From an uncultured Candidatus Saccharibacteria bacterium (lineage in GTDB: Bacteria; Patescibacteriota; Saccharimonadia; Saccharimonadales; CAZWFS01), in assembly GCA_964633325.1 (NCBI GenBank), contig CAZWFS010000007.1, forward strand, positions 1 through 60,006: a stretch of 60,006 bases of DNA, written 5' to 3'. Made by a program: the position numbers and the translations under genes. Shown here one piece after another: positions 1,405 through 52,214 of this stretch (position 1 is its first letter; each line of letters begins with the position of its first letter). The notes beneath the pieces were generated by a model, which saw nothing but the letters and a program-made list of their open reading frames with translations, was not told where the DNA came from and ran no database searches.

Positions 1405-1414
1405 GAGCAATAGC

Positions 1415-2851: not shown

Positions 2852-2921
2852 GAATCATTGATACCGCTTACGTATGTTATAATTAACATAATCAATACAC
2901 ATACATGCCTCGGTGGGCAGC

Positions 2922-8843: not shown

Positions 8844-8856
8844 TACCTTGCCTAGG

Positions 8857-11088: not shown

Positions 11089-11107
11089 ACAAACAGATAT
11101 ATGAAAA

Positions 11108-11135
11108 TTGACTTTTAAGGGGAAACAAACATAAT
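11108..11135 (+). promoter_or_regulatory. Sigma70-type promoter for the tRNA-Lys transcript
   Basis: TTGACT (11108-11113), 16-nt spacer, CATAAT (11130-11135). Confidence 0.65.
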
Positions 11136-11257
11136 GTAAGGAGTTAATTCGTCTTACTTATTGCGACGAGGGCTCACCCGGTAGTGAGCTTTCGTTGGTG
11201 CTCACCTAAAAGTGAGCACTTTTTCGCCTAAAGGCGAAGGAACGAAAGTCTACTACC

Positions 11258-11334
11258 GGGCCCATAGCTCAGCCGGTTAGAGCACCTGCCTTTTAAGCAG
11301 GGTGTCCTGGGTTCGAGTCCCAGTGGGCCCTCCA
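11258..11334 (+). tRNA. tRNA-Lys(TTT)
   Basis: Acceptor GGGCCCA/TGGGCCC, anticodon arm CCTGC-CTTTTAA-GCAGG, T-arm CTGGG-TTCGAGT-CCCAG, encoded CCA. Confidence 0.97.
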
Positions 11335-11726
11335 ATGAAAAAGCCTGGCCTTGTGTCGGGCTTTTTCATTGGCATGCTTTACTGGACTCGATTCCATGAC
11401 ACGCCAAAAGGGGTGTCATGGGTGAAGATTGCCGGTGGCAATCTGCAAGGGAACGTTCCGATGCAAGCTGTGCTTGCAATAGCGAACTTCCGGGGTCGCG
11501 GAACGTGACCGAGTCCCAGTGGGCCCTCCAATGAAAAAGCCTGGCCTTGTGTCGGGCTTTTTCATTGGCATGCTTTACTGGACTCGATTCCATGACACGC
11601 CAAAAGGGGTGTCATGGGTGAAGATTGCCGGTGGCAATCTGCAAGGGAACGTTCCGATGCAAGCTGTGCTTGCAATAGCGAACTTCCGGGGTCGCGGAAC
11701 GTGACCGAGTCCCAGTGGGCCCTCCA
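11315..11726 (+). repeat. Exact 196-bp tandem repeat (2 units) containing 3 copies of the 20-bp tRNA-Lys 3' end
   Basis: GAGTCCCAGTGGGCCCTCCA at 11315, 11511 and 11707; the two intervening units are identical base for base and rich in hairpins. Confidence 0.95.
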
Positions 11727-11749
11727 TATGCGTTTGGAAATCTCATTTT

Positions 11750-12277
11750 ATGTTAAAGTTCCCAATCATGCCTAAACGAAATATTTTGATTAAAGATGAA
11801 GAAGTGATAAGGGACGCGGGTTATGTATATATTTGTTCTGGATATTTAGTAGAGAATAATAAAGTACTCTTAGTTCATCACAACGGATTTGATAAATGGG
11901 TTCCGCCCGGTGGGCATATAGAGCCTGGAGATACTTTTGCATCTGCAGCCGCCCGTGAGGTAAAAGAGGAAACCGGTTTGGAGGTAGAGGTCATATCATC
12001 GCAACCGAATTTAAACCTTGATGATAAGCTTGCTATTGCAGAAGCGGTGCCATTTTATGTAGATGTTGAATATGAATTTAAGCCTACTCCCGCGATTGTT
12101 CAGCTTTTTTGGATGCGACGTAAATCCGGAACAAAGGATGTTGATTTAATGGCACAAATTGAGGAAGTCAGCGATGTTGCCTGGTTTAATGCAGAGCAAC
12201 TAAAAACCCTGCCTACGTTTGAACAAGTGCGTGTTGTAGCGACTTACGCATTGACTCATCACCCTGACGCACTATAG
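11750..12277 (+). CDS. NUDIX hydrolase
   Basis: Nudix box GGHIEPGDTFASAAAREVKEETGL. Confidence 0.92.
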   Translation: MLKFPIMPKRNILIKDEEVIRDAGYVYICSGYLVENNKVLLVHHNGFDKWVPPGGHIEPGDTFASAAAREVKEETGLEVEVISSQPNLNLDDKLAIAEAVPFYVDVEYEFKPTPAIVQLFWMRRKSGTKDVDLMAQIEEVSDVAWFNAEQLKTLPTFEQVRVVATYALTHHPDAL

Positions 12278-12372
12278 TCGCAATAGCTTCCACCTAGCCC
12301 TCCGGGGATTAGAGTAACTACGACAGTTGCAACACATGGGCTTAACAAAGGCCTTTTTGTTATAGTACCGAC

Positions 12373-12978
12373 ATGCAGAATACTGTGATTGCAGAAAATA
12401 TAGGGCAATCCGATAATGCCTACGCGCTACTGGCAATACCTTCAACTGGCTTTAAGAAGCAAGTTTCAGATCTATTAGATAGTATTGTCGCTGAAATAAA
12501 TGACGTCATTTGGCCGATGCCCTCTAACGCTCTTCACATTACGCTATGTGAAATTATTCAGCCGAAATTGTACAGTGAAGATAAACAGGCACTTTATGAC
12601 CGCCATAAAGTTGAGTACGAAATGATACCGGAACAAGTGCTTTCATCCATTACTCCAATTACGGTGCGTTTCAACACTATTGAAGTTAACTCGCAAGCTA
12701 TTATCGTTCGAGGTGAAGATGGTGGAGTTTTCAATAAAGTTCGAGACAAACTTGTTGAGTCTTTACCGATTCCTGATGAAACTAAAAAGCCGCCAGATAT
12801 TGTGCATTCTTCAATAGCTCGATACCAAAAATCAGAAGATATCCGCTCCATACAAGAAGCATGCCGTGAACTAGCCATTGATTTTGAAGAAGTTATTTCG
12901 GAAGTTCAGCTCGTACACAACGCTCGCCCACCAATGCTCGAATATCAAGTAATTCGTAGCTACCCGCTTTCAAAATAG
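12373..12978 (+). CDS. 2H phosphoesterase (LigT / 2'-5' RNA ligase-like)
   Basis: Two Hx(T/S) motifs, LHITL and VHSSI, about 90 aa apart. Confidence 0.75.
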   Translation: MQNTVIAENIGQSDNAYALLAIPSTGFKKQVSDLLDSIVAEINDVIWPMPSNALHITLCEIIQPKLYSEDKQALYDRHKVEYEMIPEQVLSSITPITVRFNTIEVNSQAIIVRGEDGGVFNKVRDKLVESLPIPDETKKPPDIVHSSIARYQKSEDIRSIQEACRELAIDFEEVISEVQLVHNARPPMLEYQVIRSYPLSK

Positions 12979-13167
12979 TTCCAATAGCGTAACAGTGGAT
13001 CCTCCAATCGCATTGAATTAGCCTTTTCGGAAGCTGTTTTTATTTTTCTAAAATGTTCTTTATGTGAATTCTAGGTATATAAACTTTTGCCTCTCAAATT
13101 TTGTTAAATTAGCCAGAAAATAATCGCTGTCTATATATTCTCCCTCAACCCCTGTTATGATGTAGTT

Positions 13168-13944
13168 ATGTCACAAAAACTTGTTGTCGTAGATATTGAC
13201 GCTACACTGATTGATTCGCCAAAACAAAAAGTACCAAGTGATGAGTTTGTGAAAGTCGTACAAGATATCAAGAATGACGCACTCATAACGTGTGCGACTG
13301 GCCGTTCATGGTCATGGGCCAGGCCAGTACTTGAACATGCCAATTTTACTGCACCATGCATTATTGGTGGTGGTACGCTCCTGCTCAATCCCGAGACTCT
13401 AGAAATCATAGAAGAAAACCTGTTACCTCCAGGGCAATTAGATAACATCAAAACAGTACTCAAGGACTACCCTACAGTACATGTGTTGTTCAATGACTAT
13501 ACGGAAGAGGATTATCTTGGTGGTGGCTGGGAGCTATCAACGCTCGTGGAAAGTAATGAGTGCTACATCATGGAAATCGTTATGGTTACGCATGAACTAG
13601 CGGATGAGCTTATAGCGAAATTTAAGGTGCTCGAAGGCATTACATCAGTAAAGATGAACTCCTTTGAACAAGGTTTAGTTGATGTCCACGTCGTCAGTGA
13701 GCGTTCAACTAAAGAGCATGGCATTGCTACTATTCAAAAGATGTTTGGTATAAGCAAGGAGGATACAATTGGTATTGGCGATGGCCACAATGATTTACAT
13801 ATCTTCTATGCAGTTGGCATAAAAGTTGCTGTTGGTAACGCAGTGCCAGAACTGAAAGAACTAGCTGACGAGATAATTGACGACGTTACTAAAGACCCCG
13901 TGACAAGTTATCTCAAGGGTTTGGCGTCAAAAGCTAAATCATAG
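13168..13944 (+). CDS. Cof-type HAD phosphatase (HAD-IIB)
   Basis: DIDATL motif I, ATGR motif II, TKEHG motif III, GDGHND motif IV. Confidence 0.9.
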   Translation: MSQKLVVVDIDATLIDSPKQKVPSDEFVKVVQDIKNDALITCATGRSWSWARPVLEHANFTAPCIIGGGTLLLNPETLEIIEENLLPPGQLDNIKTVLKDYPTVHVLFNDYTEEDYLGGGWELSTLVESNECYIMEIVMVTHELADELIAKFKVLEGITSVKMNSFEQGLVDVHVVSERSTKEHGIATIQKMFGISKEDTIGIGDGHNDLHIFYAVGIKVAVGNAVPELKELADEIIDDVTKDPVTSYLKGLASKAKS

Positions 13945-14060
13945 GTCGAGCTTAGGCTGATGCATCTATATTTTCATCAAAAACTAGGTGTTGCATTACT
14001 TTTATTATAGGGCTCAATCCTAGAAATATTTTGCGCGCACACTAAGTACAGAAAACGAAG

Positions 14061-15752
14061 CTAGTATATGTTGCTACCGCCAGGAGACGATAGCTCCCAG
14101 CCCACACTAGAATTCCAGCCTGCATTGTTCAATGTCCCTGTCATAGATCTAAAGAAGATGTCCATATCCACACTACTTCTGGATATCGCCGAAGGGTTAC
14201 CACCTACGGCGTTGTTTGCCCTAGATGCTGTTGCGCTCCAGCCCGATACATTATTCCAGCCCGTATTCTCTAAATTATTAGCGCTGTCAGGATAAAATAC
14301 ATCCATGTTGTTTGCATCCCTCTTAATTGCGATCGGGTCACCGTTCACGCAAGGATTACCGCCTACTCCACAAGTAAGACCCCTGCCAGTTGGTGAAGTC
14401 CACCCCGTGGAACCATTCCAACCTACATTCAATAAATTATTATTTGTGTCGCGGTAAAAAACGTCCATATCGTTCCAGTTTCGAGTTATGGCCGAAGGGC
14501 TCCCGCTGACATTTCCGCCGCGGTAATTAACCGATCCCCAGCCAATACTTGCGTCCCAGCCAATATTTTGTAAATTGCCTGCATCGTCTCTAAAGAACAC
14601 ATCCATACTATTTCCATATCGCGTGATAGCGATTGGATCCGTTGTTACGCAGGGTGTAGATCCGCCACAAGTTACTCTTGTTACGGCACTGCCCCAGCCC
14701 GTAGTGGAGTCCCAGCCAACGTTTTTAAGGTTGCCGCTGCTATCGCGGTAAAAAACGTCCATGCTAGTAGAGCTGCGAGATATTACGGTAGGATTGCCCA
14801 CAATTCCACTCGCTCTAGATACAGTTGAGCCCCAACCAGTGCCCGAATTCCACCCGGTATTCTGGAGATTGCCATTACTATCTCGATAGAATACATCCAT
14901 ATCGACAGAGCTTCTTGCGACCGCAACAGGATTGCCAGCCACACATGGATTGCCACCCACACCACAAGTAAGCCCGCGGCCTACTGGTGAGCCCCAACCA
15001 GTACTTGCATCCCAGCCCATATTGAGTAGATTGTTATTTGTATCTCGATAAAAAATATCCATTGAGGTGGAGCTTCGAGTAATAGATGCTGTTTTAGAAT
15101 GTGTGCTTAGATCAATAGTGGAGCCACCTGCGCAAGCTTGTCGATTAGCTGTTGAGCCTGTTGTCCCTACAGTCCCTAATTCTATTCCTTCGCCCAACGT
15201 AACACCTGGATTACCATGATCTTTGTAGCACGCAGGATTTATAGAGCTTTTGAACTCTACATGTACATGCGGACCAGGGTTACAGCTTAAGTTAGCTACA
15301 GTACCCAGACTCATACCATTTGTAATTGTTCCGGATGTCACTGCTCCGGAGAGGTGAGCCACATATAATGTCCCGACAGCGACACCATTGTCACTAACGT
15401 TGACTGCAGTGCTAGAACCACAACCAGTGGATGAAGAAGCCCAGGAATAAGTCAGGGTGCCTGTACTGCCACTTACATTCCACTTCACACTTGTCCCAGC
15501 GGCCGCATACAGGTCGGTTGACCAGTTGTAACCCGAACCATATATTGGATGTACTGTAGGGTGGCTGGAGTTAGAATCAGTGTATGGCGGGTTCACATTT
15601 GCGTTATATGCCCACTTGCCCTGAAATGGCATGCCAATTGTAGCTTTTTCATTAGCTGCTAAGACGCTTAGCGGAGAACATATAAGAAATAGAAACGAGC
15701 TCACTATCAGTGCTAAAGCTGCGATTCTACGGGAGAGTCGAGTCAATTTCAT
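14061..15752 (-). CDS. Secreted M23-like peptidase fused to a 7-repeat lectin-like beta-propeller
   Basis: Signal peptide; STDLYA...YVAHL...GPHVHVEF M23-like motifs; seven repeats of R...MD(V/I)F(Y/F)RD..(G/N)NL.N.GW....GW. Confidence 0.7.
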   Translation of the reverse strand: MKLTRLSRRIAALALIVSSFLFLICSPLSVLAANEKATIGMPFQGKWAYNANVNPPYTDSNSSHPTVHPIYGSGYNWSTDLYAAAGTSVKWNVSGSTGTLTYSWASSSTGCGSSTAVNVSDNGVAVGTLYVAHLSGAVTSGTITNGMSLGTVANLSCNPGPHVHVEFKSSINPACYKDHGNPGVTLGEGIELGTVGTTGSTANRQACAGGSTIDLSTHSKTASITRSSTSMDIFYRDTNNNLLNMGWDASTGWGSPVGRGLTCGVGGNPCVAGNPVAVARSSVDMDVFYRDSNGNLQNTGWNSGTGWGSTVSRASGIVGNPTVISRSSTSMDVFYRDSSGNLKNVGWDSTTGWGSAVTRVTCGGSTPCVTTDPIAITRYGNSMDVFFRDDAGNLQNIGWDASIGWGSVNYRGGNVSGSPSAITRNWNDMDVFYRDTNNNLLNVGWNGSTGWTSPTGRGLTCGVGGNPCVNGDPIAIKRDANNMDVFYPDSANNLENTGWNNVSGWSATASRANNAVGGNPSAISRSSVDMDIFFRSMTGTLNNAGWNSSVGWELSSPGGSNIY

Positions 15753-15756
15753 AATT

Positions 15757-16449
15757 CTATTGACTGAATTCTAAAGAGTTAAGTATTTGATCACCGAAAT
15801 CTACTATATTAGTAGTTTCGCTTTTGTCACCAAGATAATTTATAACTACGTTGTAAACTGTCTCGTTCTTTTCGAAGAAATAATATTTAATGTTACCTAA
15901 ATCAGATTTCTTCGCTTGATATTCCAGTACCATGCCGCTCAGTCCGCCTACTTTTACTCCCTCTTCTTTAACAAGCTCGAAAAAATCATTCTTAGCCATA
16001 ACAGTTTTGATATTTGGGAGATCGAAGTCTTGAGAAGATCCTTTCTTTGCAACTACTAATTCAAAGGCGTTTATGCCTTCTTTGCTGGTAGTCTCGTGGT
16101 ATTCAACCGAAGAAGTATATATTCTACCGTTCGCGGGTGCTGTATTTTTGCCCTGAGAAAGTGACCACTGAGAATTAGATGGATATCTAAGGCTAAAGCC
16201 TTGTTCGGCATTGGTGTTATCTCTCCACACTATGGGGGTAGGTTGTATGGGCTCAGCCGGCTTTTGATCGGATGACTCCGTGTCGACTGGGTCTACGGGG
16301 GCTTGTTCTGACTGGGATGATAAGCTCGCAAGAGTTGGTTCGTGAGAGCGGCTAATGCCGAAGGCAACCGCCGCTACAACAGTTATCCCAATCAAAACTA
16401 AGATTCTGGTCAGTCCGATTTTACGTACCCTGGCAAGTGACATCTTCAT
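15757..16449 (-). CDS. Exported protein, pilin-like N-terminus, possible PsbP/Mog1-like fold
   Basis: Basic leader then one TM helix; GFSLRYPSNSQW and VKVGGLSGMVLEY resemble PsbP-like strands. Confidence 0.5.
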   Translation of the reverse strand: MKMSLARVRKIGLTRILVLIGITVVAAVAFGISRSHEPTLASLSSQSEQAPVDPVDTESSDQKPAEPIQPTPIVWRDNTNAEQGFSLRYPSNSQWSLSQGKNTAPANGRIYTSSVEYHETTSKEGINAFELVVAKKGSSQDFDLPNIKTVMAKNDFFELVKEEGVKVGGLSGMVLEYQAKKSDLGNIKYYFFEKNETVYNVVINYLGDKSETTNIVDFGDQILNSLEFSQ

Positions 16450-16461
16450 TAATCTAAGCTC

Positions 16462-17115
16462 TTAATTAACTTTAATTGTCTGGATTACTTGCTCTATAAG
16501 CTTCAGATTATCTGTGTTTGCTGTAGCCTTGTACACCACATTTAGTTGCCTACCATCTGCTAAGTTAAATACGTGCTGATATATTCTGTCGCCTTTCGTA
16601 ACACCAGTGACTGACTCGAGCCATTCTATAGTATATTTTTTACCTTTTACGCTGCCGATTGAGTATTCGCTGTTTGTTTCCTTACCATTATTATTTGGCG
16701 ACTGCCACTGAGGAGCATCGTAAGCATTAGCCGACAGGACTACATTGAATTTCTTCTGATCACCGACATATGACCGAGACTCTTCATGAATAATTGCTGG
16801 TTTCCCAGGAGTGTGTGTAATTTCGTCGCCATTAATTGTTCCGCCAGGATAATTGAAAAGCTCCCAGCCTTCCGGCGCTTTGATAGTAAAACCACCGTCA
16901 AGACTTGTGACCGTCTTCCAGTTTGCTGTCTCATCCGTGCTAGGTTTGGGGATTTGTTGAGCTGTGTCAGTATCTTTCTGCTGTGATTTGGCTGTATCTT
17001 TGGATGAAGACTTGAAGACTGCGTACCCAACGCCAGTAATTACCAGCAAAACCACCAGCACTAACACTAAAATGTTAGCACTAAAGCCCGCTTGGTTCTT
17101 GGTTTGAATTATCAT
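16462..17115 (-). CDS. Exported protein with class III (prepilin-like) signal, possible PsbP-like fold
   Basis: NQAG/FSANILVLVLVV (no E5); WKTVTSLDGGFTIKAPEGWE motif. Confidence 0.55.
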   Translation of the reverse strand: MIIQTKNQAGFSANILVLVLVVLLVITGVGYAVFKSSSKDTAKSQQKDTDTAQQIPKPSTDETANWKTVTSLDGGFTIKAPEGWELFNYPGGTINGDEITHTPGKPAIIHEESRSYVGDQKKFNVVLSANAYDAPQWQSPNNNGKETNSEYSIGSVKGKKYTIEWLESVTGVTKGDRIYQHVFNLADGRQLNVVYKATANTDNLKLIEQVIQTIKVN

Positions 17116-17284
17116 AACAAAGGTATCCTTGTCTTATCGCTTAAGCATACTATAAAGCATTTATATGTTCCAAGTAGTCCTATCGATGGCTCCAAAACTA
17201 CGACTCTATCCCGGAAGTTTTTATTTTGCCATCTGATCATTTCGGCAGGTGTATAATGAAAATATCAGGTAAGGAGGGCTCAAA

Positions 17285-17656
17285 ATGATAGGACAAAACG
17301 CAACACACGCGAACTTTAGCGTTGATGACATGAATGCGGCTAAGGCATTTTACGTGGATAAACTTGGCTTTACCATCAGACGTGAAACATCCTATTACGT
17401 TGTGTTCGAAAGCGCCGCCGGTACACGCTTCAATGTGTACGCAAAAGCCGACCACAAGGCTTGGGACTCCACTGTTTTCGGTATAGAAGTACCTGATGTC
17501 AAAGATGCGGTCGATGAACTTAAAGCTCAGGGCATCACCGTTGAGAAAGTCGATGGCACGGACGAAAACGGCATCATGAGCGATCCAGATATGGGAGACG
17601 CCGCATGGTTCCGCGACCCAGCGGGCAATTGGATCTGCATCGATAGCTATAGTTAA
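17285..17656 (+). CDS. VOC/glyoxalase family protein
   Basis: FSVDDMNAAKAFYVDKLGF; AWFRDPAGNWI; strong RBS AAGGAGG. Confidence 0.9.
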   Translation: MIGQNATHANFSVDDMNAAKAFYVDKLGFTIRRETSYYVVFESAAGTRFNVYAKADHKAWDSTVFGIEVPDVKDAVDELKAQGITVEKVDGTDENGIMSDPDMGDAAWFRDPAGNWICIDSYS

Positions 17657-17796
17657 AGAGTTTTTTGCCGGTAATAAGGGGGATTGAGCAAAAGTTTAGC
17701 TGCAATAGTCTCCACTACGCTTCTTCACAGATTAGTCCGGGTGGGATTGTCGCAACCAAGGAGCCGAAGATGGTTACATTTTGTTATCATTAGTTT

Positions 17797-18345
17797 ATGA
17801 AGCATAGATTCGTATTTGTTCACGGGAATCAAACCACACACTGGTCATTCGCCTGGGTTCCCTGGCTCAAGGCTGAGCTAGAAAAACTCGGGTACGAAAC
17901 GTTCTTTGAGACAATGCCGGATTCGATAATTGCGCGAGCTGAATACTGGCTCCCCTTCCTTAAAGATCATGTAAAGGCAGGCGACAATGACGTAATTATA
18001 GGCTGGTCATCGGGCGCGATGGCCGCCATGCGTTTTGCTGAGAGCAATAAGATCCTGGGGTCTGTCTTAATCTCACCAAGCTATACGGACCTAGGTGACA
18101 GCATGGAAAGGCAAAGTGGATATTTCGACAAGCCCTGGCAGTGGAACGACATAAAAGCCAATCAGCAGAATATTGCTTTGGTATGGGGCGACAATGATCC
18201 ATTCATCTCCCAGGATGAATTTGATTTTATCGCAAAGCAACTTAGGCCTACAGAAATAAAAGTTCCAAATGGCGGACACTTCATTGAGCGAAATGATTTT
18301 CCTGAAGTACTCGAATATATAAAACGAACGTACTCTAAAATTTAG
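17797..18345 (+). CDS. RBBP9/YdeN family alpha/beta hydrolase
   Basis: VHGN, GWSSG nucleophile elbow, DNDPF, GGHF. Confidence 0.88.
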   Translation: MKHRFVFVHGNQTTHWSFAWVPWLKAELEKLGYETFFETMPDSIIARAEYWLPFLKDHVKAGDNDVIIGWSSGAMAAMRFAESNKILGSVLISPSYTDLGDSMERQSGYFDKPWQWNDIKANQQNIALVWGDNDPFISQDEFDFIAKQLRPTEIKVPNGGHFIERNDFPEVLEYIKRTYSKI

Positions 18346-18445
18346 CTGCAATACCATCGCAGATGGCCATCCACAGCTTAGACCAAGTGAGGCTGCTGTA
18401 AGTACGAGCCATTTGTCTGCTCTCTTTGTTTGCTATAGTTATGGA

Positions 18446-19210
18446 ATGGTAGCTTACAACATAGAAACTGCAGAAAAAGATATCCAATTTCAGTATCCGA
18501 ACACTAACGACACCATGCTAGCCAAATTGAAGCGTTCATCTGGCACCCAGATTGATGTTTCAAAAAGCGAGGTGGAAAACGTAAAAGATTTAACTGGGTA
18601 TTCTCATTCACTCTTTACTCATAACGGCGACAATGTACCTTCAGCGGCCGATCCTTTAACAATTCTCAAAGAGGCCAAAGCTGGTAAATCCTTTCGATGC
18701 GTTGAGTACAGCACACTGGCAGTCGGATTATTATGGGCAAACGGCATACCAGCCAGGACTATCGGCCTTAAAACTAGCGACGTCGAGACACGTGAATACG
18801 GAGCCGGGCACGTCGTTATCGAATTTTGGAGCGGTGAATCCCAAAAATGGATTATGTGCGATGTCCAGGCGGGTGTTATCCCCGAGTACGAAGACAGACT
18901 ATTGTCCGCATACGAATTACGGCAACATCTCTATAACAATAAATCTGTAGTTTATATTCCCATCACCGGCTCTAGATTCTCCCCCACGAGCAAATACAGT
19001 GACAAAGAAAACTACTCGGAATGGATTAGTGAATATCTATACTTTATTGATACACCCGTCCACCTGACGTTGGGCAATGAAGACAAGCCAAAACAACAAA
19101 TAGCCATGCTAGTACCGATAGATATTGAACCACCAAGGATGTTCCAAGGCATGTTCGTGATGAACGTCTTATACACGCACAGCGTTTTAGATTTTTACCC
19201 TAATATGTAA
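18446..19210 (+). CDS. Transglutaminase-like protein
   Basis: RCVEYS...GIPARTIGL...GHVVIEFW...KWIMCD gives a Cys-His-Asp triad; TGCTATAGT lies 6 nt before ATG 18446. Confidence 0.8.
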   Translation: MVAYNIETAEKDIQFQYPNTNDTMLAKLKRSSGTQIDVSKSEVENVKDLTGYSHSLFTHNGDNVPSAADPLTILKEAKAGKSFRCVEYSTLAVGLLWANGIPARTIGLKTSDVETREYGAGHVVIEFWSGESQKWIMCDVQAGVIPEYEDRLLSAYELRQHLYNNKSVVYIPITGSRFSPTSKYSDKENYSEWISEYLYFIDTPVHLTLGNEDKPKQQIAMLVPIDIEPPRMFQGMFVMNVLYTHSVLDFYPNM

Positions 19211-19387
19211 GACTTCGAGACGCTTAGGCTGGTTCCAACAACTCCACACATGGCCCTCCAATACGCTTATGTTCAAGCTTTAAAACAGCTTGGCACTAGA
19301 TATTGCTTAGGAGAGTGGTTAATTTTAAACAGGTGGAGATATCACAAGTATTCTTAATCGTTAGCAGTTAAATAACCAGAGACCCCT

Positions 19388-21580
19388 TTACCGCCACACC
19401 AGCGGCCTATCTCCACTATTCCCGAACACGAACTCAACATTAGTTTTGGTCGGAATGGAGCTCAAGTTATTGTTAGATAGGTACCAGGTATTGCCACGCA
19501 CAACACCCACAGTATCAAAAGTGTCACCGTTCCAATCTCCCACGACCGGCCGGTCAGTAGAGTTGCCAAAAGCAAAAGGTTCACCCGCGCCACTAGTATT
19601 ACTATTGCGTAGGTAGAATGTACCACTGCGCCATATACCTGGCGTATCCGTACCATTGCCGTCCCAGTCGCCTACCAACGGCATATCACCCGTACCATTG
19701 CCGTAACCAAAAGCTAGGTCAGCCACACCAGCCGTATTGCTATTGCGTAGGTACCATTGGCCGTTGCGGACAACGCCGGGAGTCTCGCTGCCGTTCCCAT
19801 CCCAGTCGCCGCAGATCGGGATGTCCCCGGTATTACCGAAGCCAAAGATTGCTTGCGGCGCTCCGCCACTAGCGACAGCATTGCTGATATGCCACTGGCC
19901 GTTGCGAACTACGCCCGGTGATTTGGTACTGTTCCCATTCCAGTCACACATCAGCATCAGTCCATCAGTTTTATTACCATAACTAAACTGCTTGATTGTT
20001 CGGCTACCATCCCCCAGATACCAGGTGCCATTTCGCCATACAGCCGGTTTGGATGTGGGCCGATTATTGAAATATGGACTCCTATCCCTCAATAATGACC
20101 CCTGGCTGAGGTTAAGCCATTGCGATTCCCAACTATTATATTGGGCTTTGACGCAATGAGCGTCCATTAGGCTGCCGTCGCAGGTATGCGCTAGCCCAAA
20201 ACTATGGCCGGCCTCATGGGCTGGGTGGTTACGCCGTTTATCATACGTATTGCAGCTGCTGGCAGTAGTGGCCGCGAAACCGCTAATGTATTGGGTGGAG
20301 TCCACGTTAGTGTTTGGTCCGCCTATGCCGATGCAGCCTTCCGGAAGCCCAAACTCATACAATATGTTAGTACTAAAACCTTTACGACCGAACTCCGGCT
20401 GCAAGCTGAAGTAAACAGCCAGCGCTGCGCTGCCTTGGCAGTTCAAATCGGCAGGGCACTGCATGTATTGCGCTGCGGTCTTGCTGCCACGTACCACTTT
20501 GACTTCCGCTATATCGAAGTTTTTGCCGTTGGTACTGCGTGCGTAAAAATCCTGCACAGTCTGGGCTATAGTAGTGATCTCTCCAAGGTTGCCATTTCCC
20601 CCCACATCGGCAGGAACTACCCATAACCACCGCGTCTGCTGCAAGTTGGCTGCGCTGACCTTGCCTCTATCGTCCTTTTCCTCGGGTATAGGCTCCTCAT
20701 AAGCTGGAGGAAGCGGGACGCTGCGGACTTTGAAAGCATCATTACCGACCCGGTAGGAACGCACCTCTTTGGCGATAGTCTGCCGGGCTTGCCGGGCTTG
20801 CTGGCCCCCAAGCTTGCGGTTCTTGATTTGGTCTGGAGCTGCGTCGGTTGGGACCAGGTCGGCAGGCAAGGCCTCTGTTACGCCTGCCTTGGCGGCATCT
20901 GACAGCTTGATGGCTTCCACATTTACTTCGTCGGCCTCATACGGCGCGGCGGCCTTGGCGCACTCGCCTTTTAGCAGTTCTATGATAGCCGTGAGTTCAA
21001 GTGAGGATTCATTGGGATAGATACTGGCAATGCGTGACCCCTTAGTGGTGTTAAGACGCACGTGCTCTCCGGTGGAAGATGGTTGTATGTACTGGTCATT
21101 ACTGCGATCTTTGTTGGCTGCCTTGTTGAAGCCGCGGTCCTTTACTTCAGAAACGATGGACTTGACTTCTGATCGGCTCAGCCGCCTCTCGGTATAGCTG
21201 GGCGGGGCCGTGGGATCGTTCTTGACATGGCTGGTATCACCGCACAGCAAACGTCCATCGCCGTACAGCATTAAGGCCTGCGGCATCGAGGTATTAAAGT
21301 CGTTTTCTTTGTAACTATGGAGCATGCCTATCTCGTAGTTCAGTACCAGCTGGTTGGCCTTGTTCGGTACGCCGCCAGACAGGTCTGCGGCCTTGGAGTA
21401 TAAAAGCACTGAAGTGCCAACTACCGTGAATAAGGCCACGAAAACTAAGGCCCGTGAAGCCGAGGAGGCCCTCTGCCAGCGATACTGCATCTTTGATACT
21501 CTGCTTAAAAATCCTACATTCTTTTTGTTTGATTTGCGTTTTGATACGATTTTTTTGTTTTTTTTGGCAGGTAATGCCAT
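19388..21580 (-). CDS. Membrane-anchored/secreted metzincin metalloprotease with C-terminal DWxG(N/D)G repeat propeller
   Basis: HEAGHSFGLAH plus Met-turn SLMD; about 5 repeats of V.RNG.WYL....FG.G...D.P..GDWDG.G. Confidence 0.8.
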   Translation of the reverse strand: MALPAKKNKKIVSKRKSNKKNVGFLSRVSKMQYRWQRASSASRALVFVALFTVVGTSVLLYSKAADLSGGVPNKANQLVLNYEIGMLHSYKENDFNTSMPQALMLYGDGRLLCGDTSHVKNDPTAPPSYTERRLSRSEVKSIVSEVKDRGFNKAANKDRSNDQYIQPSSTGEHVRLNTTKGSRIASIYPNESSLELTAIIELLKGECAKAAAPYEADEVNVEAIKLSDAAKAGVTEALPADLVPTDAAPDQIKNRKLGGQQARQARQTIAKEVRSYRVGNDAFKVRSVPLPPAYEEPIPEEKDDRGKVSAANLQQTRWLWVVPADVGGNGNLGEITTIAQTVQDFYARSTNGKNFDIAEVKVVRGSKTAAQYMQCPADLNCQGSAALAVYFSLQPEFGRKGFSTNILYEFGLPEGCIGIGGPNTNVDSTQYISGFAATTASSCNTYDKRRNHPAHEAGHSFGLAHTCDGSLMDAHCVKAQYNSWESQWLNLSQGSLLRDRSPYFNNRPTSKPAVWRNGTWYLGDGSRTIKQFSYGNKTDGLMLMCDWNGNSTKSPGVVRNGQWHISNAVASGGAPQAIFGFGNTGDIPICGDWDGNGSETPGVVRNGQWYLRNSNTAGVADLAFGYGNGTGDMPLVGDWDGNGTDTPGIWRSGTFYLRNSNTSGAGEPFAFGNSTDRPVVGDWNGDTFDTVGVVRGNTWYLSNNNLSSIPTKTNVEFVFGNSGDRPLVWR

Positions 21581-21917
21581 ACTTATTCCAATCTCTTCTC
21601 TTAGTTTTTTTATTGAAGATGCTGCTTATGCATGTTACAAACTTAGTTTATTCAAAGATAAATTGGCTGTCAAGGAAGCGCAGGAGTAACACTTTATTGC
21701 AATTTAGCTGCAAGAATATGTCCGCTAGAGTCATAATTTGCCGGACGATGTGTTGACAATAAAGAGACCAACAAAGCACATTGCTTTGATTTTGAAATTT
21801 AATTAGAGAAGTCTTATTTCAGCTGCAACAGCCTCACAAACAGCCCTCCAATCTATACCCCAAGTAGTAATACCGCAACCAGGAACCTTAGTCGGGCCTT
21901 TTTGATATGATTGACAT

Positions 21918-22514
21918 ATGACCAAGTACGTATTGAATTCAGGAGCAATCAAGCATCAATCGAAACTCAAGCAGCAATTTCATCAAGAGCTCGTAAAAGA
22001 AATAGGTGCTGAGCCAAAGTTTTTGCTATGCAACTTTGCACAAGGACGGGAATACTGGGAGTCGAAATTTCAGGGTTACGCCAATGCAGTAAGTGAGGAT
22101 ATGCCGGTGGGTGTTACGCCTTCATTTGAGTTAGCTATGCCGTCTGCATTCGCAGATCAATGCAGACGGTCCGATATAATCTACTTGCATGGTGGTGATG
22201 ACCACTTGTTGAAATATTGGATGTCGCAATATGATTTAGGCGAATTATTCAGGAAAAAAGTTGTGGCTACCAATTCTGCCAGCTCAAACGTGTTGGCTAC
22301 ACACTTTTGGACTTGTGACTGGCGGCAGTGTGGAGATGGTCTTGGTATTCTGCATATAAAATTTATCCCGCATTACCAGTCAGATTTTGGTAAAGACGAT
22401 CCCCGCGGACCTATTGACTGGCAACAAGCCTATGATGATTTGGCGGCTTACGGCGATATATCCCTTCCAATACATGCACTAAAAGAAGGTGAATTCACCA
22501 TCCAAGAACAATAA
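21918..22514 (+). CDS. Peptidase E/S51-like (class I glutamine amidotransferase-like) protein
   Basis: DIIYLHGGD, ATNSASS nucleophile region, FIPHY. Confidence 0.75.
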   Translation: MTKYVLNSGAIKHQSKLKQQFHQELVKEIGAEPKFLLCNFAQGREYWESKFQGYANAVSEDMPVGVTPSFELAMPSAFADQCRRSDIIYLHGGDDHLLKYWMSQYDLGELFRKKVVATNSASSNVLATHFWTCDWRQCGDGLGILHIKFIPHYQSDFGKDDPRGPIDWQQAYDDLAAYGDISLPIHALKEGEFTIQEQ

Positions 22515-22618
22515 AATAATCGCTCCACCTAGTTCGATACCAGTTGCAACAGTATCGCACACTGCCCTCCAGCACAATCTGCTCGATTGACCCTATAAAC
22601 TGTTGTTATAATCAAAAT

Positions 22619-22903
22619 ATGCAAGAAGGCTTTAAAGTAAGCGGCCGGATAGAACTATTTCCCCAAGCTGGCGGCTGGCATTACGTCAAAGTACCAAAAG
22701 AATATACTCAAATCACAAAACCGCTCGCAGATATAGGGCTAGTAGCGATTACAGCGACACTTGGCGAATCATCCTGGAATACTTCCCTTCTGCCGATGGG
22801 TGATGACACACATTTTATAGCCTTACCGGCAAAAGTAAGAAAATCGGAAAAAGTACAGCTAGGACAAAACATTAACATGTCATTTATCCTTAGGCAGCGC
22901 TAG
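22619..22903 (+). CDS. DUF1905 family protein
   Basis: GGWHYVKVP, WNTSLLPMGD, ALPAKVRKSE; TGTTATAAT lies 6 nt before ATG 22619. Confidence 0.8.
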   Translation: MQEGFKVSGRIELFPQAGGWHYVKVPKEYTQITKPLADIGLVAITATLGESSWNTSLLPMGDDTHFIALPAKVRKSEKVQLGQNINMSFILRQR

Positions 22904-22990
22904 TCCACACCCCGTAAATGTAAAATAAAGTCTTTTGCACAAAAGTTGCAACAACATAACACACTACCCTCCAATCCCATGAGCTTTTGA

Positions 22991-24346: not shown

Positions 24347-24432
24347 GGTTCACTTATCATCTTACAACACAGCTGAAAAGCCACACACGATTACCACAAT
24401 TATAAGCTTTTTAGGTTATTGATAGTGACGAG

Positions 24433-25152
24433 CTAATTCTCAAAATAATCTTTTTCGATACTGATTACTAATAGGTACTGATTATTCTTAGAAATGGCAT
24501 CTGCTATAGCGCCTACATTTACAAGACGCTTATCGGAAAAAGTCTTAAATAATGTAGCGCGAAGCATAACATTCTGGTAATTGCTTAGGCTATCGAGTAA
24601 ATACCTTGTATCCTGGTAATGCAAATGCATTTCCAGACTGCCTTTTTTTACGATAGTTCCCCCATTCAAGTACGCGTTCTGAGCGCTTCCTGCTGGAACA
24701 TTCCTATAAAAACGGTCAGTCATTGTAATCATATTTGAGTGAGAGGGATTATCTATATCCCAACCTAAAAAAGCTAAATTTTTAAAATAATTTAACATTT
24801 GAATTTTAAAATCAGGGTTAAATCCATAGTACTGTGTAATTCTATAGCTGCATCTATGGGCAAATCCTTGATGAACCTTCCAATTATTTTGACCTTTGTA
24901 ACACTCGTCTAAAAACTCCGATCCACTATTAGTTAAGCCAGTCTCCTGTTCGACTGCAGAGAATTCATCTTTTATTTCAGATCTTATCTTTTCCCTAGGT
25001 AGGGATACCTCCTTGCTTTTTGGGTTGGGCATTGATTTCAAATTCTTAGCTAAATTTCCCAAACCTCCATATAAAAAAGTAGTCGAAATAAATGCAAGGG
25101 TGGCACTTATCCCAAATGCAATAAAAATGACTAGCAAGGTTTTTTTGTTCAT
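24433..25152 (-). CDS. Hypothetical membrane-anchored protein
   Basis: 239-aa ORF with an N-terminal TM helix; TATACT lies 6 nt before the ATG. Confidence 0.65.
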   Translation of the reverse strand: MNKKTLLVIFIAFGISATLAFISTTFLYGGLGNLAKNLKSMPNPKSKEVSLPREKIRSEIKDEFSAVEQETGLTNSGSEFLDECYKGQNNWKVHQGFAHRCSYRITQYYGFNPDFKIQMLNYFKNLAFLGWDIDNPSHSNMITMTDRFYRNVPAGSAQNAYLNGGTIVKKGSLEMHLHYQDTRYLLDSLSNYQNVMLRATLFKTFSDKRLVNVGAIADAISKNNQYLLVISIEKDYFEN

Positions 25153-25303
25153 GGCTTAAGTATATATGTATTGAGCTAAACGTACGGGGAATTGAAGTAC
25201 TGGCTTAGAATTTTAATCGTAATAGCGTCGAATTCGGCCCTCCGCTTTAAGAGCCTAGGTGGGTGTTGGGCTTTCTGTGTGGCTGACTACACTAGCGGGA
25301 GTG

Positions 25304-26302
25304 CTATGACTGACCACCAAGATATAGTCTTGGATCTACGGGCTTACCGTTTATCCTGATTTCAAAGTGCAGATGGGTGCCTGTTGAAGCGCCAGTTGAA
25401 CCTGCATATCCTAGTATGGCTTTTTTATCAACTTCTTGGCCAACTTGCACCGTGATTGATGATAGATGAGCGTATACCGATGTCATTCCTCCGCCGTGAT
25501 CAATAACCACGTTGTTGCCTAGGCCTACTTTTGAGCGCACTGTTTCTATGACTCGACCAGACTTGAAAGGCTTAATGGGCGTGCTGCCGGAGCGCTGTCC
25601 GTCGCTAATATCTATACCGGTATGGAATGGTTGGAATGGCCGATGAGGCACACCAAACTTTGTTGTTATTGCACCGTTCATTGGCCATGTGGTTTCCAAA
25701 TCAACATGAGGCTGAGGAGTCGTATTTTTAACGGGCGGGTCAGGTTGAACTGCTGTCGAGACAGATATATTGGTATCAATTACCGGCACGGGAAGCTTAT
25801 CGGCCGGCCTGATTATAGCGCTCACGCTAGATTTATTCGCGATGAAGCCAACGGTATTACCGGCACTCTCTGTTACGAATTTAGAACCGCTACCTACGGA
25901 GTGCGTAATAAAATCCGCGCTACTATCCACTGCATGTGCAATTTGATTTGCGCCGCTACGTACACTGTGAACCGCAAACCTGCCACTCTGAACGGTGGTG
26001 GTTGCAATTGATTTTGAAGCAGAACGGATACTATTACTTACCGCTTGTTCCGCTGAGCTCGCAGCTCGCCCAACCTCGTCAGTTGCCGCAAACATACCGT
26101 TTGTTATTACATTTGGGCTATCTTCCCTAATCGTGTAAGAATTGTCGCCAGCAGAATCCAGGCGCGCACCCTGGGCCTGAGCTGTAGGAATTTTCCAGAT
26201 TATAGCTAGTAGAAACGGCAACAGTAACAAGCTAGCAATAACAAATATTCCAGCGACAAGAAATCGCAGTTTGTATAAAAATGTTTCACTAAATTCGCTC
26301 AT
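25304..26302 (-). CDS. Membrane-anchored M23 family metallopeptidase
   Basis: FHTGIDI, VYAHL, STGTHLHFEIR. Confidence 0.93.
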   Translation of the reverse strand: MSEFSETFLYKLRFLVAGIFVIASLLLLPFLLAIIWKIPTAQAQGARLDSAGDNSYTIREDSPNVITNGMFAATDEVGRAASSAEQAVSNSIRSASKSIATTTVQSGRFAVHSVRSGANQIAHAVDSSADFITHSVGSGSKFVTESAGNTVGFIANKSSVSAIIRPADKLPVPVIDTNISVSTAVQPDPPVKNTTPQPHVDLETTWPMNGAITTKFGVPHRPFQPFHTGIDISDGQRSGSTPIKPFKSGRVIETVRSKVGLGNNVVIDHGGGMTSVYAHLSSITVQVGQEVDKKAILGYAGSTGASTGTHLHFEIRINGKPVDPRLYLGGQS

Positions 26303-26432
26303 ACAGTCCGAACTCTTAACATTCGATTTTATAAATATTGATTATACACTAAATTTGCATATAAAACATGCATAAGCAATACTAAGGACTACCTTCGGGA
26401 GTATCTTTTTGATTCATTCATCATATGAAGGG

Positions 26433-26984
26433 TCAGCGAATGTATGTTGCCAAAATTATAGTTAGGTGAAAGCTGGTACCGTACAGAGTCTGCAAAGATA
26501 ACTGATGTTTCTTAGATTCTTTTACAAATGCAAAAAGTATCCATACAAGTACCATATATGCAGCCACTATAAGAGCAATCATTCTAATAGCTAATGTGAA
26601 ATCTTGAGAAAAAACTATAAAGAGACAGAGGGGCATCAGTAGTATGTGCATAATATAGGCAGTTACGTCGTGAATTGTTGTCTTTCTGCCACCTGTTGTG
26701 GGAATGATTAACGCAGCCAGTTGACCTATAACCGCTACGATTAGCAAAGCAGAAAACAATTTAGGCAAATGAAAGGTTGGCACGAACCAATTTGTCATAA
26801 ATAAATAAAATAGGAAGAGATGGATTGAAAAAATGGCAAAATAGTAGACAATCCCCTGTCTAGTCGCAGCCGCGTGTGCACTGTACGACATAGACCTGTC
26901 GCCCGGCCATTTGCGAATCATAAAAATTAGACATACCCATAGCTGAATAATAGATATTAGGCCAAGTGATTTGTATAGTTCCAT
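26433..26984 (-). CDS. Hypothetical multi-pass membrane protein
   Basis: About 6 hydrophobic helices. Confidence 0.7.
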   Translation of the reverse strand: MELYKSLGLISIIQLWVCLIFMIRKWPGDRSMSYSAHAAATRQGIVYYFAIFSIHLFLFYLFMTNWFVPTFHLPKLFSALLIVAVIGQLAALIIPTTGGRKTTIHDVTAYIMHILLMPLCLFIVFSQDFTLAIRMIALIVAAYMVLVWILFAFVKESKKHQLSLQTLYGTSFHLTIILATYIR

Positions 26985-27149
26985 AGCTTTTCGCCATTAT
27001 AACAGTTACAACAGCGTCATCTCGTGCTCCCGTACATAAATAATGCCCTTGACTATTAGGTATTATTGTGCTAATATGTTACTAAATTGAGGCGTAAGCC
27101 GTAATCTCTTCTCAAAACTAGAAAATTATCAAACAAGAAAGAAATATTT

Positions 27150-28028
27150 ATGTGGATTTTTTGGGCGCTATCGAGTGCCCTATTCGCGGCTAGTCGCCGC
27201 CCTCTTGAAAAAAAATTAGTCAACCAGCTTCATCATTTTACGTACGGATTTATCGTACAATTATTATCCTTACCGATAATAACGGTCGCACTACTTCTGA
27301 ATGGGAAATTCTTAAACCCGCTGCACCTTGGTGTTAGCTTTTGGTTGCCCCTATTAATTGTCGGCTTGGTATTTTATCCCTTGAATTCATTTCTGTATCT
27401 ACAGGCAGTTAAGCGGGGTGACCTATCTAAGGTGCTGCCAATTCAAAGCTTATGGCCTGTCTTCGCACTTATAGCTGCTTGGTTGACACTAGGTGAAATA
27501 CCAACGATCGTCGCATCTACGGGTGTTATGTTTACTGTAGTCGGCGTCTATGCGCTAGGCTTAAAAGGCCGGCGACTGCATCACCCGCTGCAACCATTCC
27601 GCGAAGATAAGAGTAGCCTGTATATGTTGCTTGGCGTAATACTTGTGACATGCATAAGCTTGCTAGAAAAGGGAGCAGTTAAGGCATCAAGTGCGTTATT
27701 CTATAGTTTCGCCAGTACGGTGTGTGCAATCTTTGCATTTTTCGCCGCCATGTACGTCACGAAAGGGAGCCGCCTTTCCGACACAAAGCCGGCGCTCAAG
27801 CACCTTGGTATCGTAGGCTCATTACACGGCGCCACATACAGCAGCTACCTAATCGCCATATCAGTCGGACCAATTGCATATGTGTCTGCCCTCCGAGGCA
27901 GCAATGTCTTAATGGGTGCCCTAATAGGCATTGTTTTATTGAAGGAAAAACTAACAAAAGCAAAAATAGTGTCCTTTGTGTTTATTGCGGTCGGTGCGGT
28001 ACTCTTGGCAACTGGCTCCTCAGCTTGA
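27150..28028 (+). CDS. EamA/DMT family transporter
   Basis: About 10 TM helices in two repeats; GEIPT and LLKEKLT motifs. Confidence 0.88.
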   Translation: MWIFWALSSALFAASRRPLEKKLVNQLHHFTYGFIVQLLSLPIITVALLLNGKFLNPLHLGVSFWLPLLIVGLVFYPLNSFLYLQAVKRGDLSKVLPIQSLWPVFALIAAWLTLGEIPTIVASTGVMFTVVGVYALGLKGRRLHHPLQPFREDKSSLYMLLGVILVTCISLLEKGAVKASSALFYSFASTVCAIFAFFAAMYVTKGSRLSDTKPALKHLGIVGSLHGATYSSYLIAISVGPIAYVSALRGSNVLMGALIGIVLLKEKLTKAKIVSFVFIAVGAVLLATGSSA

Positions 28029-28160
28029 TTGCAATCATACCGCATATGCCGCAGCAACAAGAAAAAGTCCGCGATCCCCTCGGACTCTCCAGTACACATA
28101 GAACAGATGTGCTCGATATGCGGAACCGCAGCCAAAGAGACCACTAGTTAATATGAGGAT

Positions 28161-28442
28161 TTAGGCGGTGTCCGGGGGTGGGGTAGGGCCGTTTAGGTCG
28201 GCTTCTGTCTCGTCGCTTGTGGGGGTTGGAGGAGTCTGCGGCAAACCGACGGCGGCATCGACCCCCTCCTGGTAGGCTTCGTCTGGGTCAGAATTTGTAT
28301 CTGTTACAGGATGATCTACGGGTAATGTAGAGGGCTGGTCATCCGGCGGAGAAAAAGGAGTGTTCTGGTCCTGTGGCAGCGGGCTGACTGGGTCGCCACC
28401 CGTTACGTCGTTATTCATACTTTGGTCATCTGTCGGATTCAT
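28161..28442 (-). CDS. Hypothetical acidic Pro/Asp-rich protein
   Basis: RBS AAGGAG before the ATG; low-complexity composition. Confidence 0.65.
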   Translation of the reverse strand: MNPTDDQSMNNDVTGGDPVSPLPQDQNTPFSPPDDQPSTLPVDHPVTDTNSDPDEAYQEGVDAAVGLPQTPPTPTSDETEADLNGPTPPPDTA

Positions 28443-28729
28443 AATGTATCTCCTTAATTAAGTGTTACATTTAAGAGCCAAGCCGATTGTGGTACAGCTA
28501 GATAACTAACACACGCATTTCGCACTTGAGCGTCAGGTGCGATTTCTCTCCGAGAAGCGGACTGAGCTGTACATGAGGTACTGCTCGGGAGCATCGGAGG
28601 GAAAAATCAATTGCTTCGCTCCTGGCAGCATATTATTAATAAGTCAAGGAAAAATCGTGTTTGGTGCCAAGAAGCCGGCAGGGTCTAGGGCTTCGCTCCA
28701 GAGCATGGTGGCTGGTGCGTAAGGCGGGC

Positions 28730-29218: not shown

Positions 29219-29241
29219 ACGGTAATCATATCATGGGCGAA

Positions 29242-52077: not shown

Positions 52078-52214
52078 TTGCCTTTGACGCTAATGCTAAC
52101 GACTTCACCAAGGTGTACGAACGAGCATTACTACGTTTTCGTCAGCACTTGATTGGTGCTATTGCCGTCAACTCTAGCCGTCAAACTATTTAATAACTTT
52201 TTAATTAAATCAAA

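Follow-up and report, generated by a model that had tools for sequence, protein, structure and literature searches.

Chromosomal integrons consist of an intI gene, an attI site and cassette arrays bordered by attC sites, which are imperfect inverted repeats (R''/L''...L'/R') forming hairpins when the DNA is single-stranded. Staphylococci carry pseudo-SCC elements (staphylococcal cassette chromosomes that lack ccr), which are comparable to cis-mobilizable elements (CIMEs). Three further systems place their cargo at the end of a small RNA gene. In the ssrA islands of Dehalococcoides, a conserved arm accompanies a direct repeat of the 3' end of the RNA gene, and the islands lie in tandem (PMC3146451). 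CIMEs form accretion-mobilization arrays at tRNA-Lys in streptococci (PMC5704250), and the tycheposon-shaped islands of Prochlorococcus follow, more loosely, the same insertion logic as the locus described here (bioRxiv 10.1101/2020.12.28.424599). This locus lies in 60,006 nt of DNA from an uncultured Candidatus Saccharibacteria bacterium (GCA_964633325.1, contig CAZWFS010000007.1, positions 1-60,006, forward strand; hereafter, the window), where a tRNA-Lys(UUU) gene is followed by an island of small genes punctuated by copies of a ~33-bp site.

Saccharibacteria are ultra-small epibionts with reduced genomes, and the ways in which they gain and shuffle accessory genes are poorly understood. 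The island spans ~17 kb, from the tRNA-Lys 3' end (11334) to ~28.0 kb, and is flanked by core genes encoding PilM, RuvB/A/C, YebC and ComEC on the left and DUF192, RimK, DnaJ/K, GrpE, HrcA and Gmk on the right. Its proteins are mutually unrelated, and most received Pfam assignments in a domain scan of open reading frames (ORFs) that covered those of at least 120 aa in the window and smaller ones in the array. GC content within the island, at 0.35-0.53 per gene, is lower and more uneven than in the core flanks. Judging from sequence comparisons, the island probably grew by accretion, as small cargo modules (0.4-5 kb, most carrying one gene) were inserted site-specifically, again and again, at the tRNA-Lys 3' end.

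The Repeated Site

The consensus site, yAGTTGCAAyAGCrTCACAGATGGCCCTCCA, covers ~33 bp, with a few conserved bases further upstream. An earlier note, made from the sequence of the window alone, had listed nine copies of it as a bipartite motif, and all nine were confirmed in position and sequence, each on the + strand. Also as described there, the first base of three copies is the G of the preceding TAG stop codon (12277, 12978 and 18345), and two copies lie between convergent genes (19232 and 22945). The degenerate pattern GYTSCAAYA-N13-YCMTCC, with at most one mismatch, gave six matches in the window, all on the + strand, against 0.07 expected from 100 dinucleotide shuffles. A position weight matrix (PWM) made from the window copies found no further match above noise in the 60 kb, both strands being scanned. 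When a PWM was built from 25 copies of other genomes only, it recovered nine of the nine window copies at 12-42 bits, again on the + strand only; its matches were confined to 12277-25216, the best score in any of 30 shuffles was 11, and it placed the site at no other gene end in the 60 kb. The weaker copies mentioned in the earlier note fared less evenly, as the one at 28028/28029 is borderline (8.1-8.8 bits), that at 27005 retains the left arm only (16/17 by eye), that at 17167 needs indels, and those at 13990 and 24372 were not upheld.

The two halves of the site differ in origin. The right 14 nt of the consensus form a core, CAGATGGCCCTCCA, that is identical to the 3' end of the tRNA-Lys(CUU) genes of two related loci, L004 and L026 (loci from other genomes are given L numbers throughout). 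All site copies carry tRNA-end cores of 7-14 nt. The comparative data thus agree with the original assignment of the right 14 nt to the tRNA-Lys 3' end. No such match to the tRNA exists for the left arm, which is nevertheless conserved across genomes; the suggestion that the left box is a displaced T-loop is therefore unneeded and has no support here. As had been claimed, the site forms no hairpin, since DNA folds of the nine site regions were no better than those of shuffled sequence (z -1.3 to +1.1), and a comparison of the site with Rfam gave no match.

Occurrence in Other Genomes

A strict 39-bit pattern, matched by four of the window copies, was used to query a metagenome collection and returned 15 loci, all of them real and all sharing far more than the pattern demands. 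L025 (14 kb) holds seven copies of the site, L016 three, and L012 and L023 two each, on one strand within each locus. All four of the retrieved loci that include a tRNA (L013, L020, L022 and L025) have tRNA-Lys upstream of the copies and co-oriented with them, and the same placement and orientation are found in L006 and, for diverged copies, in L026 and L028. Thus, every locus with enough flank, these seven and the window, carries its copies downstream of, and co-oriented with, tRNA-Lys, whose anticodon is UUU in the window, L013 and L025 and CUU in L006, L020, L022, L026 and L028. Among viral contigs (IMG/VR), the strict pattern had 0 matches and a relaxed pattern 3 noise matches (GC 0.26-0.60, PWM <10); no phage-borne attP was therefore found.

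This distribution bears on the idea that the motif is a regulatory protein-binding site, whether an operator, an activator site or an alternative-sigma promoter, of an accessory-gene regulon that happens to be clustered here. Five of the nine window copies do end 46-72 nt upstream of a + strand start codon, and TTGCAA is like a -35 hexamer. However, the right half is the tRNA 3' end, occurrence is limited to tRNA-Lys flanks, and across genomes most copies adjoin or overlap the stop codon of the preceding gene. Instead of a fixed position relative to regulated promoters, as expected of a transcription-factor site, the window copies stand at interval borders and not at each promoter; two point into the 3' ends of convergent genes, and none occurs among the three minus-strand genes at 14061-17115. 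A generic promoter/terminator scan showed no excess (38 against 32 expected), and the L026/L028 indel described below is bounded by the core. We regard a regulatory role as very improbable.

Layout of the Modules

Across genomes, ~28 of 34 site copies are preceded, at a distance of 0-80 nt, by the end of a co-oriented ORF (at least 70 aa), and in four copies the TAG of the site itself is the stop codon. Regular intervals of 402-890 bp, with one gene ending at the site, occur in the window, L012, L016, L023 and L025. In the window, seven of the ten gene-bearing intervals hold a single gene, in line with the statement that most intervals do so, and the intervals behave as modules in that shared modules recur in differing contexts. 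The cargo of the arrays, which includes toxin-antitoxin pairs as well as NUDIX, VOC (vicinal oxygen chelate) and cupin proteins, resembles cassette cargo.

Conserved boxes also occur on the right flank of the site: CGCTTATGyT was observed 5 times against 0.06 expected, GCATAAGCA 2 times against 0.03, and TTAGACC-like boxes 6 times against 0.29. In several genomes, the GCATAAGCA box also directly follows the tRNA itself. The enrichment of these boxes indicates that the unit has a defined left end, the right end being formed by left arm and core together. On inspection by eye, cassette genes of the + strand show extended -10 boxes of the TGnTAnnnT type 7-12 nt ahead of the ATG but lack an obvious Shine-Dalgarno sequence, which suggests leaderless or near-leaderless transcripts with one promoter per cassette.

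Because the site mostly lies directly 3' of co-oriented genes and ends in the acceptor 3' strand of a tRNA plus CCA, it might be imagined to act at the RNA level, either as a tRNA-like 3'-end tag on mRNAs (for processing, stabilization or CCA-related recognition) or as a substitute for a terminator. Such a role is hard to credit, since the site has neither an acceptor nor a T-arm partner strand, no stable fold (z ~0) and no counterpart in Rfam, while the copies at 21822 and 25216 are preceded by no co-oriented gene and all other gene ends in the 60 kb do without the site.

Arrays Compared Among Relatives

The serine hydrolase encoded at 17797-18345 has ~1000 homologs in Saccharibacteria at 70-80% identity. 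In six of the seven other arrangements looked up, it belongs to an array that starts at tRNA-Lys and consists of small, unrelated genes, mostly co-oriented, and both its neighbours and its distance from the tRNA vary in each of the six arrays. In the seventh (L029/L030), it lies in the cargo region of an element resembling an integrative and conjugative element (ICE) at tRNA-Glu, without the motif. This region, in another Saccharibacteria genome (L029 4794-20549; L030 3159-18758), has a large serine recombinase overlapping tRNA-Glu, followed by small cargo genes and then type IV secretion system (T4SS) genes; the cargo run encodes deaminases, NUDIX, VOC, serine hydrolase and APH proteins and holds no motif copies. 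Other modules common to arrays of different genomes are RelB/YafQ, an ArsR pair and NUDIX, at 66-75% DNA identity.

Two of the arrays carrying the hydrolase make the cleanest comparison. In L026, tRNA-Lys is followed by a terminator, a promoter and the serine hydrolase gene. L028 has the same terminator, promoter and gene, plus an 822-bp insert (1568-2389) between the CCCTCCA of the tRNA and a second CCCTCCA that is preceded by a degenerate left arm. The insert contains its own terminator, a gene for a 112-aa secreted protein (1690-2028) and a small antisense membrane ORF; the 112-aa gene has a GC content of 65%, compared with 52% for the genome. With its breakpoints at the core, this difference is the occupied/empty relation predicted by the insertion model; it is the only clean pair found and joins fairly distant genomes. 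The two-gene pair of the insert is also present in GCA_041743505.1 (L037 6001-6699), flanked by glycogen genes and ruvA, with no tRNA or motif nearby. The 112-aa protein was considered as a test of cross-phylum origin and set aside, as it has 11 homologs, and the one context seen among them is seemingly another Saccharibacteria genome, at a position that is not next to a tRNA.

At the scale of the whole island, the tRNA-Lys locus of the window lies between ComEC (9586-11334 region) and DUF192/RimK (28161-30640). In a distant relative, L001, RimK, tRNA-Lys(UUU) and ComEC are adjacent with no island between them, as in an empty site. A ComEC search of genome contigs returned only two distant relatives (47-50% identity), neither with an array, and exact look-ups of the ComEC and YebC of the window returned no record. 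The tRNA points towards RimK in the window and away from it in L025 and L013, and the array is on the 3' side of the tRNA in both cases.

The same comparisons can be read in another way, namely that the sites are fossil attR scars of full-size ICEs, integrative and mobilizable elements (IMEs) or prophages that had their own tRNA-Lys integrase and were whittled down by deletion, so that the cassettes were never mobile and the array is static. This is a documented route to tandem arrays at tRNA-Lys and ssrA (PMC5704250; PMC3146451). Decayed copies do occur in the window (17167, 27005 and 28028), the degree of identity noted above implies that the modules common to genomes are old, and in L029/L030 the same cargo genes lie within an ICE-like element with serine recombinase and T4SS genes. 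Nevertheless, the arrays of the window, L006 and L025 contain no integrase, replication, conjugation or phage remnants, the intervals described above are regular, the L028 insertion is a clean unit, and the conservation of left-end boxes implies small units with two defined ends. We therefore consider fossil scars an unlikely explanation, though a more serious one than a regulatory site or an RNA tag.

Structured Repeats at the tRNA End

Directly after tRNA-Lys(UUU) lies a perfect tandem repeat, absent from the earlier note (11314-11726; period 196 bp, 2.1 copies, 100% identity by TRF). The last 21 nt of the tRNA (CGAGTCCCAGTGGGCCCTCCA) open each repeat unit, resulting in three exact copies of the tRNA 3' end. 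The unit comprises a region of four hairpins, whose closing helix involves the 21-nt copy, and it includes TTGCAATAGCG, the left box (11-mer) of the motif. Its fold as RNA has an energy of -98.9 kcal/mol (z = -7.3), and Rfam contains no match to it. A partial homolog occurs in L006/L007 (L006 6887-7016; nhmmer E = 8e-6), after a site copy and a terminator. Between L006 and the window, 25 predicted pairs in two hairpins show eight compensatory double changes and no broken pair. The 196-nt unit probably represents a structured RNA or else several conserved palindromes. More broadly, Rfam searches (gathering thresholds and E<=1 for the window and array, E<=0.1 for seven related loci) returned only tRNAs and spurious antisense matches.

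L025 contains non-coding repeats of a different kind. Two copies of ~390 nt, 87% identical (8850-9245 and 12308-12745), lie at junctions between cassettes, each with ...GTCGTCCTCCAAG and a terminator; their fold has z=-3.9, and they have no Rfam match.

Proposed Mechanism of Insertion

Direct observation covers the site with its orientation, its confinement to the 3' flanks of tRNA-Lys in several genomes, a single occupied/empty pair and the sharing of modules; recombinase-mediated insertion, circular intermediates and present-day activity are what we infer. In the scheme that we propose, an incoming unit would carry the left arm, the core and the right-flank box as an attP-like site. The left arm (yAGTTGCAAyAGCrTCA) would have come with the incoming module and would correspond to the P side of attP, whereas the right part of the junction would be a core reproducing the final 7-14 nt of the tRNA (CAGATGGCCCTCCA). 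Recombination within the core would rebuild the tRNA and leave a P-arm-plus-core junction behind each module, and repeated insertion at the tRNA end would push older modules distally. A typical module would then read, in order, left-end box, own promoter, gene, and a P arm plus core that immediately follows the stop codon or overlaps it. Another part of the genome or a transient element would have to provide the recombinase. Serial insertion at the tRNA 3' end had been put forward in the earlier note, and the parts of that proposal that now stand on comparative data are the tRNA-Lys anchoring, the tRNA-derived right half, the modular intervals and the lack of a recombinase gene beside the array.

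Several results weigh against accretion by insertion. No recombinase was found by Pfam in any array examined (the window, L006, L013, L018, L022 and L025, with ~10-20 kb visible per locus), and in the window none lies within ~30 kb of the distal end of the array or anywhere on the tRNA side. The consensus shows no clear dyad symmetry, though this would be expected of a simple tyrosine-recombinase core. Since the metagenome loci were retrieved with a window-derived pattern, the pattern positions are not independent evidence and only the remaining positions count as independent conservation. L004 and L009 hold similar compact tRNA-Lys arrays without the motif, so that the site either is not universal or decays. 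Finally, the loci compared contained no excised circle, no identical cassette in two places and no strain-level gain or loss, and their shared modules are only 65-75% identical at the DNA level.

The Pfam scans likewise showed no integration, replication or transfer genes in any array seen, and they agree with the statement that no recombinase is encoded beside the array of the window. The sole Phage_integrase match in the window (58191-59432) is ~30 kb past the distal end of the array and 47 kb from tRNA-Lys; it was rejected as the array recombinase, as it belongs to a separate 7.3-kb element, one end of which it marks, and overlaps the 5' half of a tRNA-Met. A TrwB/DUF87-like protein encoded beside the L022 site was considered as an ICE marker and discarded. 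It has >1200 homologs of ~60% identity across Saccharimonadales and is therefore probably a core gene, and the contigs that encode its close relatives have neither tRNA-Lys nor the motif. In class-A sites, a dyad around GG|CC was noticed by eye, with 11 of 23 positions complementary in one site, and was left unused as too weak.

A broader reading, which we offer tentatively and with more doubt than confidence, is that Saccharibacteria, and perhaps other Patescibacteria, possess a gene-capture platform of their own that is analogous to integrons. Its fixed insertion site would be the tRNA-Lys 3' end, and its units would be single-gene, self-promoted cassettes with a ~50-bp linear site (left arm, tRNA-derived core and right-flank box), inserted and excised by an unlinked recombinase. 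With its left-arm 11-mer and tRNA-end core, the 196-nt element might serve in this platform as a recombination-site accessory or a guide-like RNA.

Features of the Window

The features of the array are collected in Table 1. Its distal border is probably marked by the last row but one, a possible decayed copy, beyond which the core genes DUF192, RimK and DnaJ/K follow.

Table 1. Coordinates of the tRNA-Lys gene, non-coding units, site copies and modules in the window
Feature	Positions	Strand	Evidence and remarks
tRNA-Lys(UUU), anchor	11258..11334	+	ARAGORN; Rfam tRNA 72 bits; last 21 nt (11314-11334, CGAGTCCCAGTGGGCCCTCCA) are the repeated core
196-bp non-coding unit 1 (SE)	11335..11530	+	TRF; tRNA-type terminator hairpin, then four-hairpin region; exact 21-nt tRNA-end copy at 11510-11530
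196-bp non-coding unit 2, identical to unit 1	11531..11726	+	third exact 21-nt core copy at 11706-11726
Module 1, NUDIX hydrolase gene	11750..12277	+	Pfam; TAG stop overlaps next site
Site copy, N12 spacing, GTCGCAATA-N12-CCCTCCGGG	12277..12306	+	external PWM, 12.3 bits ungapped
Module 2, 2'-5' RNA ligase-superfamily gene	12373..12978	+	Pfam; TAG stop overlaps next site
Site copy; core CAGTGGATCCTCCAAT, 14/16 identical to own-genome tRNA end + 2 nt	12978..13008	+	pattern, external PWM
Multi-gene interval: HAD hydrolase (+), lectin-like 563 aa (-), PsbP-like (-), 217 aa (-), VOC/glyoxalase (+)	13009..17698	.	possible decayed copy ~17167
Site copy	17699..17729	+	PWMs
Serine hydrolase module	17797..18345	+	homologs in tRNA-Lys arrays in six of seven other arrangements looked up
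Site copy, begins on TAG stop	18345..18375	+	pattern, external PWM
Transglutaminase-like gene module	18413..19210	+	Pfam
Site copy between convergent genes, then 'ACGCTTATGTT' right-flank box (also in other genomes)	19232..19262	+	pattern
M12-type metallopeptidase module, 730 aa, GC 0.53	19388..21580	-	Pfam
Site copy, top match to external PWM (41.8 bits)	21822..21852	+	pattern, external PWM
S51-like peptidase module	21918..22514	+	weak Pfam match
Site copy	22543..22573	+	pattern, external PWM
DUF1905 gene module; 402 bp between its flanking sites	22619..22903	+	Pfam
Site copy between convergent genes	22945..22975	+	pattern, external PWM
Two-gene interval: DUF6271 (451 aa), secreted or membrane protein of 239 aa	22991..25152	-	Pfam
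Site copy with diverged left arm (ATCGTAATA)	25216..25246	+	PWMs
Distal interval: M23 peptidase (-), 183 aa (-), EamA transporter (+)	25304..28028	.	left-arm-only remnant at 27005
Possible decayed terminal copy, begins on EamA TGA stop	28028..28060	+	8.1-8.8 bits, borderline
Extended -10 regions	12350-12375, 17775-17799, 18425-18449, 21895-21920, 22598-22621	+	by eye

Just left of the array, the window carries type IV pilus/competence-type DNA-uptake genes, encoding PilM and a prepilin-like protein (598-5274) and ComEC (9586-11088). These are a possible entry route for cassette DNA. Towards the other end of the window lies a separate integrative element of ~7.3 kb and low GC (52031-59455), with the tyrosine integrase noted above at one end and excisionase-like helix-turn-helix ORFs at about 57833-58190. 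At its 3' end, the integrase gene overlaps a minus-strand tRNA-Met 5' half (59404-59455), the corresponding 3' half of which lies at 52031-52077. The element also contains an intact tRNA-Met (52215-52291), possibly a replacement for the disrupted gene.

Comparison with Known Systems

A conserved insertion site that marks a hypervariable tRNA-Lys array would offer, through its PWM, a handle on the flexible gene pool in metagenome bins. It also points to a site-specific system whose recombinase is open to identification by phylogenetic profiling, and it could serve as a natural landing site for genetic tools in a phylum that is hard to manipulate. Such a system would stand beside integrons and ssrA/tRNA island accretion as a counterpart that operates at cassette scale and without hairpins. 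If the sites are only fossil scars, they still provide a useful annotation of a recurrent island, albeit one that is ordinary in kind.

The array was first described as integron-like, and its architecture justifies the term in part. As in integrons, it is an ordered array of mostly single-gene, mostly co-oriented modules, with the site directly 3' of the ORF and sometimes giving its stop codon; its cargo consists of small enzymes and toxin-antitoxin pairs, and growth occurs at one fixed proximal site. Unlike integrons, it has no intI beside it and lacks an attI/Pc platform, its linear sites measure ~33-50 bp and do not form the R''-L''/L'-R' hairpin, the modules seem self-promoted, and the proximal site is the end of a tRNA gene. 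The array is therefore not a classical integron, as the Pfam scans show no intI and the folds no hairpin attC; these absences, together with cassettes that apparently have their own promoters, are where the label fails.

Two other types of repeat differ more plainly. Xer/dif modules, such as integrative mobile elements exploiting Xer (IMEX) and pdif modules, have a 28-31-bp site with inverted arms around a 6-8-bp spacer, which in pdif alternates in orientation, whereas the site described here has no dyad and one orientation. Repetitive extragenic palindromes (REP) and miniature inverted-repeat transposable elements (MITE) are palindromic or hairpin-forming, dispersed and in both orientations; here there is no fold, one island and one strand.

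The closest relationship is with arrays targeted to tRNA or tmRNA genes, with which the locus shares a co-oriented 3' location (window and seven loci), direct repeats of the 3' end and occupancy that differs among relatives. The element-encoded integrase expected at one end of at least some units in this class (ssrA genomic islands, tycheposons and CIME accretion) was absent from the ~10-20 kb visible per locus. Dehalococcoides ssrA islands are, like the present modules, arranged in tandem downstream of a small stable-RNA gene in a small-genome host, each bounded by a repeat of its 3' end and with a conserved motif that precedes the repeat without aligning to the RNA gene; some lack an integration module and have been read as cis-mobilizable. 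They differ in that they target tmRNA, extend over ~10-30 kb and in many cases carry a CcrB-like serine recombinase module overlapping attL, whereas the units here measure 0.4-5 kb, mostly contain one gene, include no recombinase in any unit seen and have a site of unrelated sequence.

Tycheposon islands of Prochlorococcus also lie on the 3' side of specific tRNA genes in a streamlined host genome with few classical mobile elements, and partial tRNA copies separate their insertions, newer ones pushing older ones inward. Unlike the present units, tycheposons encode a tyrosine or large serine recombinase of their own, in many cases together with replication genes, and number one or two per genome; the units here have no hallmark genes, are much smaller and more numerous, and keep a conserved non-tRNA arm at the junction. 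CIMEs and pseudo-SCC elements, in turn, are att-flanked cargo without integration genes, in tandem at a fixed target-gene 3' end and movable by a recombinase supplied in trans. They are decay products of ICEs and IMEs, few per locus and many kb long, whereas the window holds 9-10 units of cassette size with defined ends. Set against all three systems, the locus stands out by its scale, with one-gene units of 0.4-0.9 kb numbering nine or more per locus, and by the conservation of both ends of the unit.

Full-text literature searches, including searches for sequence strings, revealed no description of the site or of tRNA-Lys cassette arrays in Saccharibacteria or Patescibacteria. The view that this is not a described system therefore stands for Saccharibacteria and falls for the underlying logic, which has been published for Dehalococcoides ssrA islands (PMC3146451) and, more loosely, for tycheposons and CIMEs. 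The class of mechanism is known; what is new is the lack of a linked recombinase, the site itself, the host phylum and the cassette scale of the units.

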